A stretch of DNA of 64,000 nucleotides from Camelus ferus (lineage: Eukaryota). This document shows, piece after piece, positions 16,558 through 61,893 of the stretch. The stretch lies in contig NC_045696.1 of NCBI RefSeq assembly GCF_009834535.1, forward strand, positions 44,952,001 through 45,016,000. The letters run 5' to 3'. The position numbers and the translations under genes were made by a program. Below the pieces are notes generated by a model, which did not search any database, was not told where the DNA came from, and saw nothing but the letters and a program-made list of their open reading frames with translations. Within the stretch, counting starts at the first letter, position 1; each line of letters opens with the position of its first letter.

Positions 16558-16685
16558 GGGTGAGGGTATAACTCAGTGGTAGAGTGCATGCTTAGCATGA
16601 AGGAGGTCCTGGGTTCACTCCCCAGTACCTCTATTTAAATAAACCAACCAACCAACCAACCAACCTAATTACTTCCCCCCATGCC
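16558..16685 (+). mobile_element. tRNA-derived camelid SINE (Vic-1-like)
   Basis: A box taactcagtggtag, B box ggttcactccc, (CCAA)n tail; TSD aaaaacaaacgttta (16543-16557) / aaaaacaaaggctta (16686-16700). Confidence 0.9.
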
Positions 16686-17111
16686 AAAAACAAAGGCTTA
16701 AATAAGTGTAAGTGAAAATGAGTGTTTACATGCAGCTATATGAATACGAGCCTAAGTTATTCATGCTTTCTGCTTGCATCAGAAGGGTTAGGAACCCTGC
16801 TCGTTGATTGGGAGCACTGATTTAAAATTAAGGTGCTCCATGAGGACAGGGAGGCATCTCACAGAGCAGGTGACACAGAGGACAATTCAATTGATACTTA
16901 GTGGCAAAAAATTAAACTCAAAATTATTTCTTGAAAATAAACTACTTTTAGAAACTGAAGCTATGTATCCCTAGTTATACGTCTATAATTTATGTGTCAT
17001 AGCCACAAACTGCCTCTATTTCTAAATTACCACAACAAATGGAAAAAAAAAAGCACTTGAGAAAAATGAGTTAGAAGTGAATGACAATGGTTATAAGAGT
17101 CCCAAGATTTC

Positions 17112-17464
17112 GGAAAGGGTTGAGCCAAGATGGCAGAGCAGAGAGGCTCATAGTTTGCCCTCTCCCATAAATAGACCAAGAATTACATCTACAAACCCAC
17201 TGAATCACACAGAACACCTAGGAACTCCGGCGGAGTGTCTCGCTTTGAAAAGTACAGGAGGATTCTCACAAAATCTGATAAACAACAAGTTCATACTGTA
17301 TAGCACAGGGAACTATATTCAATATCTTGTAGTAACTTACGGTGAAAAAGAACATGAAAACATATGTATGTTCCTTTACGACCAAAACATTATGCTGTAC
17401 CCTAGAAATTGACACATTGTAAACTGACTATACTTTGATCAAAAAAAAAAAAAAAGTATATAAA
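17112..17464 (+). mobile_element. Mini-L1: L1 5' UTR start fused to L1 3' UTR end plus poly(A)
   Basis: Starts ggaaagggttgagccaagatggc (YY1-type motif of L1 5' ends); switches at 17277/17278 to the L1 3' end; A15 tail; 17-bp TSD at 17095-17111 / 17465-17481. Confidence 0.88.
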
Positions 17465-18300
17465 AAGATTCCCAAGATTTCAATGGTGCATACAGGTGGC
17501 CAAAGGACAACGTAAAGGAATTGTTAACAAAAAAAGAACATCTTTTAACCAAATCAAAATAAGGAGGCAAACGTTTCAGAGTATAGATCACAGTATCATC
17601 AACAGAACTGATTAGAACAGTTAATATCAGCAGATTCAACATAGTTGAATTTTTTTTCCCTGGTAATTCTGACTAGTGAAATGGATGGTTTATTATAGCT
17701 CTTTAATTTCTACTCCTATCTTGAGTGTTAAAAAAGCTATGTATTAATTTTTCCTCGAATACTAATAATTTTAGCAGATACAGTGACACATTAAAAATAC
17801 AAACAGTAAAATAAAATGCAGATATTTCAGAAAAGCTATCTATTAATGTTACAACAATGTAATTTACCAAAATATGTTTCTGAATAAAATTATGATTCTA
17901 AAGCCTATCCAGGAAAACTTTTAAACATATTACTAGAAAGAAACAATTGCACTCAGATTCAGGAGACAGTCTAAATTTGTCCCCATCACTGTCAGCCCAG
18001 TGACAGAGCCATTCTGGTTCTCAGGGATGCCTTCTGTAGCACACGGGTGCTATTTGGACCAGATGATCTCAACAGCACCATTTCTAAATTCTGTGATTCC
18101 TTATTGATTTGCCATTTCTGTAATCCTGGCATTAAAGCAAACAATTGACAGGCAAACCCACCCAACTGCTCTTTTCCCCACCCTGGAATTTTTCTGCTAG
18201 GGAGCTAGAAACCAATGAATTACTCCTGCTTATTTGACAGTAGGATCTTAGAAATATTTTTGCTTCAAGTGAAAAATTTTGCTTGGCTTTTGCCGCCTAC

Positions 18301-46325: not shown

Positions 46326-48124
46326 AAGGCTTTTTAAAAATAAATCTGAGTGGCTAAGCAGAAGTTTCCAGATCATACCTCATGTATACCTGAATATTGT
46401 CATGACTTTGCTGAACTGTCAATTCTTTGTCTGTCTCAATAGGTGCCAAATAACTTAAAGTAGTTCAGTAAATTTAGATACACTTTTACACGTAAATTTT
46501 AAGAAACTTTTCATTAATTTCCCGATTCTTTTTTATATCTCTTACCTTGTGATAAGGCAAAAAAAAATTCAATTGTTACTCAGAAGAAGGAGAAAAAGCA
46601 GAAACTATAGGCAGAAGCTGATTTTAATGCAGCCAGTCATTCTTGATAAAATGACAGTTTTACCCCAAAAGTCATGGAGCCTCACATGGTCATGAATTTG
46701 AACCTTATGGAGTAAAACCGACACCCAAATGATCACAGACAGAACAGAAAAAAAAAAAAAATCCTGGTGTCAAACTACATGCATCACACTATTACAGCAA
46801 TTCAGTGAGGGGACGTCACAGGACATCTAACTCTCCATAATTCCCATTAGGGATAATTACATTCTCTGAGAACAAGCGAAACTGTTACCTGATGAAAAAA
46901 TGCTTTGATGACCTGGTTATTATCCTTTACAAAAAAAGATATAAGAAGCAAAGCTATCCACACAATTCCTACCCTAAATAATTTTTACATATAGGTACAG
47001 AGAATACACAGCAGTTCATGCTTTCAGTTACTTGTGGAGAAGTTTTTCAGTGCTAGGTGCATACAATGCAAAGACTGCTGAACTGAGACTTGTGCTCCTC
47101 CAAGCACTTCTCACCCACAGCTGTCTCTCTGCTTCCCTAATTACCTGGAACTAGGAAAGAGAATTCTGACAGAGCCAACAGACCACCGCTGCCCTGAGAA
47201 TTTGACCTCTGCTTTAATTATTAACAGTCAAGCAGTTACCAAATTCCGAGTATATTTAAGTAATGAGATGGACTTGATTTGAAATGGGTGAGCTTGTTAA
47301 GATACTGAAAGGGTATACTGAAAATCCTCAGGACAGACATCCAAACCACTGTGCGTGGTGCAGCAATAACCTTGAACTTCAAGACCAGCACACTCTGAAG
47401 TTCTGTGAAGGTCATCTGAAGCAGACCTTGCTTAGAACAATTCACACTATACTCTCAAGATGATTTTATAGTGTCCTCCTGAAAATCTAACTCATTCTGA
47501 AGCATCACAGTATCTGTAAACTGGCTTAGAAGAATTTTATGGAGGACATATTAGTATGTGAAGAAACAAAAAGTGTTTTATCTTTATTGACTATGTGGTC
47601 TAACTGTTTCATTTTCCAGAGCTCTCCTAAATTATAGTAAAATTCTCATGTAAAAGTAGATAATTTAATAGTGCCCTTTAGATAATAATGCATTATTCTT
47701 TGCTGAAGCATTTTTGCCATCTCTATGAACAATTCTGCAACAATGGTATTGAAATTCTGCATTAACTTTTTAATTTTTTAAATTGAAGTAGTCAGTTTAC
47801 AATGTTGTGTCAATTTCCAGTGTACAGCACAATACTTCAGTCACATAGGAACATACATACATCTGTTCTCATATTCTTCTTCACCAGAGGTTACAAGATA
47901 TTGAATATGGTTTCCTGTGCTATACAGTATGAACTTGCTGTTTATCTATTTCATATAAAGTAGTTAGTATCTGCAATCTCAAACTCCCAATTTATCCCTT
48001 CCCACACCACTTCTCTGGTAACCACTTCTCTGTTTTCTATGTCTGTGAGTCTGATCTGTTCTGTAAGTAAGTTCACTACTTGTCTTTTTTTTTTTTTTTA
48101 ATTCCACATATAATGTGGCATTTT

Positions 48125-48270
48125 AAAAAATATTTATTTTAATTTAATTTATTTTTTGAAGGGAGTAATTACGTTTGTTTACTTGTTTTTCTAATGGAGG
48201 TACTGGGGATTGAACCCAGGACCTGATGCATGCTAAGCATGCACTCTACGGCTGAGCTATACCCTCCCCT
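48125..48270 (-). mobile_element. tRNA-derived camelid SINE nested in L1
   Basis: Reverse complement ggggagggtatagctcagccgtagagtgcatgcttagcatgc...ggttcaatccccagtacctcc matches the SINE at 16558. Confidence 0.92.
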
Positions 48271-48391
48271 TCTCAAACTGCATTTTTCTTTCTCTTTCTG
48301 GCTTACTTCACTTAGAATGGCAATGTCCAGGTTCAACCATGTTGCTACAAATGGCATTATTTTATTATTTTTTATGGCTGAGTAATATTCA

Positions 48392-48393
48392 GT

Positions 48394-48441
<48 letters not shown>
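48392..48441. repeat. (TG)n microsatellite
   Basis: Directly visible. Confidence 0.95.
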
Positions 48442-48444
<3 letters not shown>

Positions 48445-50341
48445 CTTTATCTAATCATCTGTTGATGGACATTTAGGTTGTTTCTATATCTTGGCTATTG
48501 TATATAGTGCTGCTATGAACACTGGGGTGCAAGAACCGTTTTGAACTAAAGTTTTCTCTGGATATATCCCAGGAGTGGGATTGCTGTACAATATGGTAAG
48601 TTTATTTTTAGTGCATTAACTTTTAATGCTGGTGAAATTTAAATGCTAAGCATGAACGTGTGTAAACATTTTTAGTAGATGGTCACATGAAAGGTTACTT
48701 TTAATTTATGTAAGTAATTACCAATTATACTTTCCTTCCCTTCCTATTTGAAAGTCTAAGGAGGAAAGAAGCCTAACACAAGGCCTCACGCACGTTATGC
48801 TCTTTGTCTCACCATCCATCACATTCCTCTGTTTACCCCTCAACTGATCCGAATGAGCTCTTTATATGATCACATAGTTACCCTCTTTCTGTTTCAGCTG
48901 TGGTAAATATTTTTTTCCCAGTTTGTTTTCTTTTCTTTTTTTTTTTTTCATGGCAGAGATTTTTACCTCTGCTTTTCTGGTTCTACTCTCCTAATGAATA
49001 AATAAAATCTAATTAGCACAATAAAAAGTATATTAATCAAGGCATTCTTAAAATGATCACACCTTTGTTGCCACTGCCTTAAATGAAATCCTTTCTTTGT
49101 CACTCCTTCATCTCTATCTGTCCACTCTTATCAGGTGAGAATAAGAAAAAGGAAAGCTAAGAAAAAATTAACTAGTGAAGTACAGGGAGGAGGATGTGGA
49201 CACAGTACTAACTGTGCAGAACTTATTGCAAAACATAAAGAAAATCATTTATGGAATCATCCTTTCAAGTTACAGGATAGATGATCTAACTAATTCCATT
49301 CCTTCATCTTGATTTTAGGTAATTCTCACTTTTTTTCCCTAGTACTATACTTGCTTTCAGAACCTTCAGAATAAATGATCTTTGTTCATTTCAGCTCCTT
49401 TCAAAATACACAAGCTGGGTGCCGTGATTCCCGCCTGCATTATCATCACACCCGCCTATCTAACTAACAATTTCTCTTGAGTTCTTTAATCCTGGTAGTT
49501 GATGAGCACATCTAACCGACTGGAATCCGGGGCTCTAGAAATTTAAAGACCACAGTCAATTCTTTTATGTCTACATTCTCATCAATTTTTCCCAACCCTT
49601 TGCTTCTTGAAATGAATAAATGCCATCCTTTCCCTCTCTGACAAAATTTACAGAATTCTTCAGCACCTAGAACAGGATGCTAATGACTATCACAAGGAAT
49701 AGAGAAATCCGGAGTGCAATTTAAACAGAAAATCCTTAGAGAAAAGGACCAAGTAGTCAAAAGTCCATCTCAGCATGCTTAGCAATTACCAATAATATTC
49801 GGGGACTCATTCTATTTTAGTCACTCTTCACTTTATCCACACCTTTTAAAGAGTGATTTCATAAAAGCTTTAATAAGATCCATTATTATGGAAATGGCAA
49901 AACATTTGGTGAGAAACTTCAAACCTAGCTAGGCTGTTATTAAAAACAGGACAAGAGAAAACCTCTCCAATTACTAATATGATGAGAGTTCTGACAATCC
50001 CAGAGATAATCAGAGTCATTTTTATAATATTTCTAAGAAGATTTTCACTTAATGAATTTTCCTATCTGAACAAGGTAGATACACGTATTATTAAGGATGA
50101 TTAAAAGGACAACATTTTTCTCTACATGCATGAAAATTAATGAAGGACACTGATAAAGCTTTTATCACATAAAATATTCTAATAAAATAGAAAAAAAATT
50201 AAATATTTAAATATTTTCTTTACTACTAACTGTTCTCTTGGTCCTTTCTCATATTAATTTGTGAACATAACAGAATGAAAAGACTTTGAAATAGTAGCCT
50301 ACACAGAATATTATTCTGAAGGTATACATTATAGAAACATT

Positions 50342-54493: not shown

Positions 54494-56532
54494 TTCTACA
54501 TTTGAATGTCTATTGGTATTTTTGAATTTCACTTTTGGGGTGAATTTTATCCTTACAAGTTCCAGCATGGACTGCACCCCTATGGTTGGAATCCAAGTCA
54601 CATTAAAATGGTAACACTCTCCTGAAAACACTGCAAAAACACTGATCTACACACATGAACTCTTTCCTCAGGACCAGGAGTACTCCGGATCCTTTCTTCA
54701 CACGTTATTATTAGGAAAAGCAAGAATCAGATGATATATTAAATTAGCAATATGTATTTTCATTGATGGTGGCAACATTAGGAGAATGTAAAAAAGATAA
54801 AAGAAGAATAATTCCTTTGTCCCCTGGTCACACCTGTTTTTCTTCTCAATGTGGCCATTCATTCCAATTTTAAATCCTCTTAAGAAAACGATCTTTAAGA
54901 TCAAAGGAATTAATCTCGGTTCACATACTAGATCAACCTGTTAAAATATTTATTTTTATCAAATCCTTATTTATTTTGTTTGTAATTTTATGTATTTGGT
55001 GAAAAGTATGTTCTATCAATGTAATTGCTAAGGAACTGTTGAGATTCTTTGGACCTCTGGCAAAATGAAACAAAATTCTGACTAGCAACAGACACCTTTT
55101 CTTAGCTTTGATCTGACTAAAGTCAGAGAGAAGGATATGATCTTACCAGTCACACTCTGGACTTCCTCTAAGGGCTCATTCAGATCCAATTATCCTAGAA
55201 ATTCTGACAGCTTTGAAAACTCAGGCAATGATACAATTTCAAGCAAAATGTAAAACATCTTCTAGTGAAACTCATAAAATAGCTAATAAGGAAGGCAACC
55301 AATACACTGTAGTGTAGATTTATAGGCTCTATTTGCTTCTGTAAGATTAACAGTACTAAATGAACTTACAAAACAAACAAAAATGCATTCTGTATGTTCA
55401 GTATGCTATTTATAAATTCCAGCTGCAGGATATCACCATGGTAACAGGAATATACAAATAGCTCAGTTCTCTATGCAATGATGGAAGCATTACTAATTTA
55501 AAGAATGCAGTATGCTTAAGACAGACAGAAACAATTTCACAATATAGTCATCAACCTACTCATAAAAGAGGAGAAAGATGGAGATAAGTATTTCAAATGG
55601 CAGATAAAAGAAAACTGATTCCTTCTGCTCGACAATGACTGACAGTCATTCTTGGAGTTGAGGGAATGAAGTATTTTTTAAATGAACGAATGAATGAATG
55701 AGGCAACAGAATGAAAAAAATAGAGGAAGAAAATCAGGTAGAAGAGGTATTATGTCAAAATGTGTGGTATCTGTTTACAACATCAACTGTGAAACAGAAC
55801 TGAAAAAGAGTCTCAAATTTAGCATTTTGTACATACATATTCAGCCTCCAGATTGGAGTGAAAAAGATGTGTAAGATCAGCCCACTGCTCTCAAAGACCA
55901 CGTGAACATGCATGTGCATTTATTATTGTACTTAATAAATATCTACTGAGTGTGTTTAGGTACCAGGAAACACAAAGATAAGTAAGATTTTGGCGCTGGC
56001 CTTAAGAATTAATAGTCTAATGGAGAAGACAGTCCTCTAAATAAAAAGCATCACAATTTAGAGTAACTCCTACAACAGAAGTACCCATAAGGTCCTGTGG
56101 GAACATAATGTCATAGCAATATTTTCCCCAATTAGAAAGAATTGACGCTTATATCTACAGTAAAATTTAGGTTTTACTGAAAGTTAAGTGGCAGTGATTG
56201 ATGAAATATTATAAAATTCACAATTTGTGCATATAGACATTTAATTGAAATATCCCTCAACTTAAAAACAAATAATTACAAGTTCTTTGAATTTCTCCGA
56301 TCTCTTACCACCACAGGAAATTTCAGCAATAACACCGGCTATGGTGAAAGCTTTGTGAAATGACACTGCTGACTGCCACAGAAGCCCCTAAACTGGGGCT
56401 TCGGGGACGGTGATGTCTGACAGCACCAGTCTTCTCTTCAGGGAGTAAACTAAAGAGAAGATCAACGCCGAAGTCTCGGAGCTCCCTGGACAGAAAGCTC
56501 ACCAGCGTGCCAGAAAGAACAAAACATGCACG

Positions 56533-56695
56533 GTAACGAATACGTGTATACACATGCATGACCGGGGCACTGTGCTGCACACCAGAAATGGACACATTGT
56601 AACTGACTATACTTCAATAAATAAATAGAAAAAAACCCCAAAAACCACCAAATACATGCTCAAAATTAAAAAAAACAAAAACAAAAACATACACA
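56533..56695 (+). mobile_element. Very short camelid L1 3' end with long A/C-rich tail
   Basis: ctgtgctgcacaccagaaatggacacattgtaactgactatacttcaataaa. Confidence 0.88.
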
Positions 56696-61499: not shown

Positions 61500-61606
61500 G
61501 TGCTCGCTTTGGCAGCACATATACTAAAACTGGAACGATACAGAGAAGATTAGCATGGCCTCTGCACGAGGATGATGTGCAAATTCATGAAATGTTCCAT
61601 ATTTTT
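61500..61606 (+). pseudogene. RNU6 (pseudogene): Full-length U6 snRNA retropseudogene
   Basis: 107 nt colinear with mammalian U6; I count 11 substitutions, all transitions and several at CpGs; ACAGAGA box intact; ends TATTTTT. Confidence 0.96.
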
Positions 61607-61808
61607 AAATTGGGAGTTTGAGATTTGCAGATACTAATATATATAAAACTGATAAACAACAAGTTCATACTGTATAGCACAGGGAACTATATTCATCTTG
61701 TAGTAACTTACGGTAAAAAGATATGAAAATGAATATACATATGTTCATGTATGACTGAACCATTATGCTGTACACCAGAAACTGACACATTATAAACTGA
61801 CTGTACTC
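61607..61808 (+). mobile_element. Camelid L1 3' end fused to U6
   Basis: aaattgggagtttgagatttgcagatac...ctgtatagcacagggaacta...caccagaaactgacaca; matches the reverse complement of about 47790-47995. Confidence 0.93.
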
Positions 61809-61809
61809 C

Positions 61810-61893
61810 TATGTGTGTGTGTGTGTGTGTGCGTATACCCATACACGTATATACACATATATGTATATATACACACACACACATACACACACA
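61810..61893. repeat. Compound (TG)n/(TA)n/(CA)n microsatellite
   Basis: Directly visible. Confidence 0.9.

Follow-up and report, generated by a model that had tools for sequence, protein, structure and literature searches.

An insert of 353 nt raises the question of how the two ends of an L1 retrotransposon can come to stand side by side with everything between them gone. It lies in the window, a 64-kb stretch of Camelus ferus DNA, and consists of an L1 head and an L1 3' UTR tail, enclosed with its A tail in a target-site duplication (TSD) at 17095-17481. From the letters of the locus it had been proposed that both genes were removed as one large intron and that the product was mobilised in trans, possibly founding a SINE-like family (the sequence-only reading below). 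The element is a real, multi-copy, gene-less derivative of L1. It probably originated when L1 RNA was repeatedly spliced from 5' UTR to 3' UTR and then mobilised in trans, giving mostly dead-end copies.

Anatomy and setting of the insert

The head corresponds to the first 166 nt of an L1 5' UTR (17112-17277, plus strand). It has a G+C content of 47% with 3 CpG left, and at 17126-17134 it carries the motif CAAGATGGC, which we take to be a YY1 site. Related contig heads support the earlier view that it is an L1 5' end, and so do the heads of the pig L1B and L1C consensus sequences, which by eye have the motif order of this head (PMC6501411, supplementary file 1, in part). At 17277/17278, a likely splice junction, the head meets the last 163 nt of an L1 3' UTR (17278-17440, plus strand), which is 88%, 85%, 76% and 73% identical to the four other L1 3' ends in the window. 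A poly(A) remnant follows at 17441-17464, namely A15 (17441-17455) and then an A-rich stretch. The 17-bp TSD copies at 17095-17111 and 17465-17481 (both plus strand) share 16 of 17 letters, with one mismatch in the 3' copy, and among 300 random flank pairs from the window there was none with a 17-mer at one mismatch or fewer. On the bottom strand, the left edge of the TSD reads TCTT/A at the nick, a variant of the L1 endonuclease site. The consensus of this site is given by Larson et al. (2018; PMC5860796, in part). Insertion by the L1 machinery is supported by these features, and the arrangement of TSD, 166-nt head, 3' UTR tail and A tail was confirmed as first read from the letters.

Both parts of the element are UTR, and no L1 coding sequence is kept. 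A stop-free frame of 128 codons (17026-17412, plus strand) runs through the element and its joint; it had no relatives in the protein collections and was taken as chance. The 64-kb window holds no second copy of the head, and none of its three Rfam matches falls within 17095-17481. Two of these are tRNA-like heads at 16562-16633 (plus strand) and 48195-48266 (minus strand), the latter inside the L1 3' end at 47770-48600, and they are probably SINE copies. The third is a full-length U6 copy (61500-61606, plus strand) fused directly to an L1 3' UTR. This U6/L1 chimera (61500-61810, plus strand) is of a known kind, and its L1 part reads TG at the acceptor place. At 56320-56640 (plus strand), about 220 nt of GC-richer sequence are joined to the last ~90 nt of an L1 3' UTR; this could be another chimera, and no clear duplication was found around it.

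The element lies antisense to its host gene, in the second-to-last intron. Minus-strand exons of this gene were located near 18440-18320 and near 11280-11160, and the last exon at about 3050-2800. Judging by peptide motifs, the gene is presumably CBLB, and the intron would be number 17 if the gene has 19 exons. In the description "antisense to CBLB in intron 17", the orientation and the place in the second-to-last intron stand on exon positions, and the name and the number are presumptive.

Recurrence of the joint at other loci

Contigs of four sequencing runs, chosen from 24, were aligned to 17080-17325 at 80% likeness: X2 (type not on record) and X3 (guessed to be DNA), which come from two organisms, A and B, and the RNA runs X4 and X18. 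Thirty-two pieces were listed, beside 29,861 further pieces. Among the 32 listed, at least seven pieces from three of the four runs bridge the joint with at least 31 letters on each side (records 10 and 15 of X2; 22, 23 and 24 of X3; 31 and 32 of X4), and at least six more cross it with a short side of 25-30 letters. Compared with the window copy, the seven bridging pieces show 15-30 changed letters and 1-14 gap letters, so that they must come from other loci. Records 15 and 22 resemble one locus seen in two runs, run X3 alone contributes three different loci, and about 620 upstream letters of record 10 have no alignment to the flank of the window locus. Four further joints, each on one contig per run, were left out of the evidence. 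A search for the junction at other loci had been suggested as a check, and the outcome is that several loci share exactly the joint at 17277/17278 that had been read in the window. The bridging pieces in the RNA runs X4 and X18 are contigs, and RNA runs may hold DNA, so no spliced RNA or transcription is demonstrated by them.

These pieces also bear on the simplest objection, that the two L1 fragments are adjacent by chance or were put together by the assembly. Among the listed contigs, none spans the entire 17080-17325 at the window locus. However, one TSD encloses both halves, the contig of record 1 runs from the left flank into the head as far as 17270 with a single difference, 85-89% of 83 words sampled from the locus were found in runs of two organisms, and the joint is the same at other loci. 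This objection is largely refuted and retains very little probability.

The letters next to the joint give an idea of how often it occurs. C at 17276 was found in 51, 37, 29 and 4 contigs of X2, X3, X4 and X18, and A at 17277 in 33, 29, 12 and 3, counts that may take in some pieces ending near the joint. Together, C at 17276 and A at 17277 make up the decay pattern of a CpG directly before the joint. The head therefore reaches the joint, and at most a single G can belong to head and tail alike. The depth of C-bearing pieces is ~250 times that of the window-locus flank in X2 and ~140 times in X3, figures that hold to an order of magnitude because depth is not copy number. This suggests 140-250 junction copies or more, and the total is probably a few hundred. 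Again as depth and not as copy number, the C-bearing pieces amount to 0.05-0.16% of the 3' UTR core, which includes older subfamilies, and to 37-45% of the depth with which the head's end is covered. The 10-15% divergence between copies and their presence in two organisms suggest an old, probably finished burst. The heads vary strongly at 17219-17252, where small indels and more than one alternative letter occur; this suggests that a number of L1 subfamilies have this head in common.

Parts of the element were also sought in other collections. The 3' UTR core pattern was absent from viral and prokaryote contigs, the head-end pattern from metagenomes and a 19-nt head pattern from viral contigs, and the element had no match among plasmids. 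The 19-nt pattern did occur at 16 metagenome loci, which were attributed to chance, as none aligned to the element beyond 33 letters. Motifs of the element had no match in the supplements of PMC5203782 (in part) and PMC6726744, and those found in the supplement of PMC5381506 were in unrelated frog sequences only.

Splice sites and the origin of the copies

If the joint is a splice junction, L1 sequences that kept the removed part should show a donor after the head and an acceptor before the tail. On the donor side, at least seven heads among the 32 listed pieces (records 4, 11, 12, 19, 20, 28 and 30) end their alignment at 17274-17278 and continue with at least 50 unaligned letters. It is thus at the joint that unspliced heads diverge from the element and continue in different sequence. 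In pig, a relative lineage and not a camelid, inspection by eye shows G|GTA in the corresponding position of 12 of 13 L1B/L1C heads, at a distance of 167 nt in pig L1B1 versus 166 nt in the window element (PMC6501411, supplementary file 1, in part). When the last ten letters are compared with the pig head (same source, in part) ungapped, six are alike and GT stands exactly at the joint; with one gap, the joint falls one base left of GT. Record 4, a single copy from X18, aligns one base beyond the joint; with an unaltered GT, this should not happen. A GT donor is thus likely to have stood at the end of the head, as the sequence-only reading had it, with an ambiguity of one base and with the pig relatives as the place where it can be read.

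The acceptor is seen more directly. In each of the four runs, the biggest class of loose ends (893, 942, 297 and 97 contigs) has AG directly before 17278, and in the window it precedes the matching base in three of the four other L1 3' ends. One of these is the copy near 47946, for which an AG at this place had been claimed from positions 47931-47960; the claim was borne out, and AG proved to be the majority state in the contigs. In this unspliced 3' UTR (47946-47990, minus strand), the motif TACTAAC provides a branch-like A at -19, and no AG occurs until that of the joint. The majority sequence of X18 likewise has TACTAAC with a branch-like A at -19 and no intervening AG, and that of X2, X3 and X4 has TACAAAC. 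A polypyrimidine tract is absent, so that the acceptor is weak. At the acceptor place, pig consensus tails carry GG instead of AG, so that the junction is predicted to be absent in pigs (PMC6501411, supplementary file 1, in part).

Under splicing, L1 RNA would lose all between base 166 of the 5' UTR and the last 163 bases of the 3' UTR as one large intron. The donor would presumably be a GT where the head ends, and the acceptor the first AG downstream of the branch-like motif, which would itself be used. The spliced RNA would then enter the genome by target-primed reverse transcription with proteins of other L1s; as no reading frame is left, action in cis would be impossible, which implies mobilisation in trans. 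The AG majority, the recurring joint and the L1-type insertion speak for this part of the sequence-only reading; its donor is likely from the pig heads, within the ambiguity of one base.

It is also conceivable that splicing played no part: a template jump in reverse transcription, or a deletion in DNA, could have made the joint a single time where the two sides overlap by one base or a short A-rich run, and the deleted copy would then have been amplified as a master. The donor is ambiguous by one base, the acceptor context is weak and an AAAAT run is common to both sides. The copy near 61646, for which deviating acceptor letters had been noted, does read TG there, and it is the closest match to the tail in the window (88%). 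The worry about microhomology that this copy had raised loses weight in two respects: TG is the minority state, and the 3' UTR supplies no C at 17276. The TG variant therefore cannot explain the C-bearing junction copies, and microhomology through it was judged unlikely. Further, C at 17276 occurs in up to 51 contigs, a crossover in the AAAAT run would lose the two pyrimidines that precede the final G, most copies have AG at the joint, and GT and AG together would be expected by chance with p ~0.004 at window frequencies, or a few times that with one base of slack. A single origin without splicing is accordingly rather improbable.

How the spliced form reached its number is a separate matter. 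One or a few of the mini-copies may have stayed active from the 166 nt of promoter they kept, and a SINE-like family, driven by Pol II, propagating itself and moved by L1, may have descended from them. The same joint at several loci, its share of 37-45% of the head depth and the retention of the L1 transcription start region agree with this. RTE, Ingi, Vingi and R2 LINEs have given rise to bipartite families devoid of ORFs (PMC5786205, in part), and one human SpIRE (spliced integrated retrotransposed element) became active again through a host promoter (PMC13174262, in part). Against this, the human promoter was strongly weakened by deletion of the downstream 5' UTR (PMC5860796, in part), no diagnostic mutations common to the junction copies can be read from the contig summary tables, gap patterns among the bridging pieces are mixed, and the junction depth is only ~0.1% of the 3' end depth, so that no master is needed. 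A self-propagating family is therefore a possibility of lesser probability: the multi-copy joint fits what had been claimed, and repeated splicing of ordinary L1 RNA can account for the numbers.

Most copies would thus have come from repeated splicing of full-length L1 transcripts and not from a transcribed mini-copy. Short RNAs are nearly always copied whole, and most L1 copies are cut short, so that a minor splice product could match unspliced heads among complete copies and no master would be required. With a C-bearing depth of only 0.05-0.16% of the 3' UTR core depth, rare events in trans would suffice. The mixed patterns of the 1 to 14 gap letters that separate the bridging pieces from the window copy are a weak hint of different source heads. 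A counterpoint to repeated splicing is the junction share of ~40% of heads, far above the ~2% that human SpIREs make up among full-length L1s.

Comparison with known systems

The closest relatives of the element are the human SpIREs (Larson et al., 2018; PMC5860796, in part). These share with it an exact internal deletion that begins early in the 5' UTR, a TSD, an A tail, many copies with one junction and a position often antisense in introns (PMC5860796, in part). Of the features by which SpIREs are recognised, a TSD of ~6-25 bp with an A tail and an L1 endonuclease-type site was found here as 17 bp, A15 and TCTT/A; the same junction occurs at independent loci; and the deletion ends at an AG of the parent L1 in four runs and three of four window copies, although without a pyrimidine tract. 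In the described classes, the acceptor lies in the 5' UTR or ORF1, ORF2 is kept, and the copies make up ~2% of full-length L1s; the 116 human SpIRE97/622 copies, spread over six subfamilies, were judged dead ends (PMC5860796, in part). The present element measures 353 nt, has its acceptor in the 3' UTR and lacks both ORFs, and its junction copies look about as common as unspliced heads. It therefore falls outside the described classes and, among spliced L1 copies, represents an unusual variant.

In mechanism, the element also approaches a processed pseudogene. Processed pseudogenes are formed when spliced, polyadenylated RNA is mobilised in trans by L1, leaving a TSD and an A tail. They are treated in the introduction of PMC5860796 (in part); the difference here is that the source RNA is that of L1 itself and that the copy keeps the start of the internal promoter.

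HAL1 (half-L1), cited in PMC5786205 and PMC13756887 (both in part), is likewise a non-autonomous, internally shortened mammalian derivative of L1. However, HAL1 keeps ORF1, and the window element is without any L1 coding sequence and so is not a HAL1. In structure, it resembles the bipartite ORF-absent LINEs RIME, NARTc, Bov-A and RTESINE, which retain nothing of the parent LINE but its 5' and 3' ends, are likely transcribed by Pol II and depend on an autonomous element (PMC5786205, in part). It too has only LINE 5' and 3' ends, in several copies. The sources named in the available part of Kojima (2018; PMC5786205) are RTE, Ingi, Vingi and R2, not L1, and the families, which propagate themselves, are ascribed there to internal deletion with splicing unmentioned; for the window element, propagation from its own copies would be the less probable course.

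The open-access literature searched holds no description of a spliced L1 without ORFs; subscription journals, Repbase, Dfam and further supplements may have one. No such family is named in the available parts of a camelid repeat survey (PMC8605555), PMC13756887 and PMC6501411, and that of PMC13174262 mentions neither camel nor alpaca. In repeat annotation, such copies would be broken up into a pair of L1 fragments, and this may explain why they were overlooked.

The fossils of L1 self-splicing are extended by this element beyond primates, to an extreme case with both genes removed, and it records a splice path that destroys the L1 message. It also lets one ask, as an experiment of nature, if a short piece of L1 promoter can found a non-autonomous family, a kind unlisted for the L1 clade in the available part of PMC5786205. 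Should it have done so, which is somewhat doubtful, the element would be a splicing-born, gene-less Pol II parasite of L1 and the first ORF-absent bipartite family of that clade. Jointly with that tentative reading, such parasites might be expected to arise wherever a lineage has a donor in the 5' UTR and an acceptor in the 3' UTR. A SINE in the strict sense has a Pol III small-RNA head (tRNA, 7SL or 5S), and the head here is an L1 5' UTR. The element is thus not a strict SINE; it works like a SpIRE or a processed pseudogene of L1 and looks like a bipartite non-autonomous LINE.
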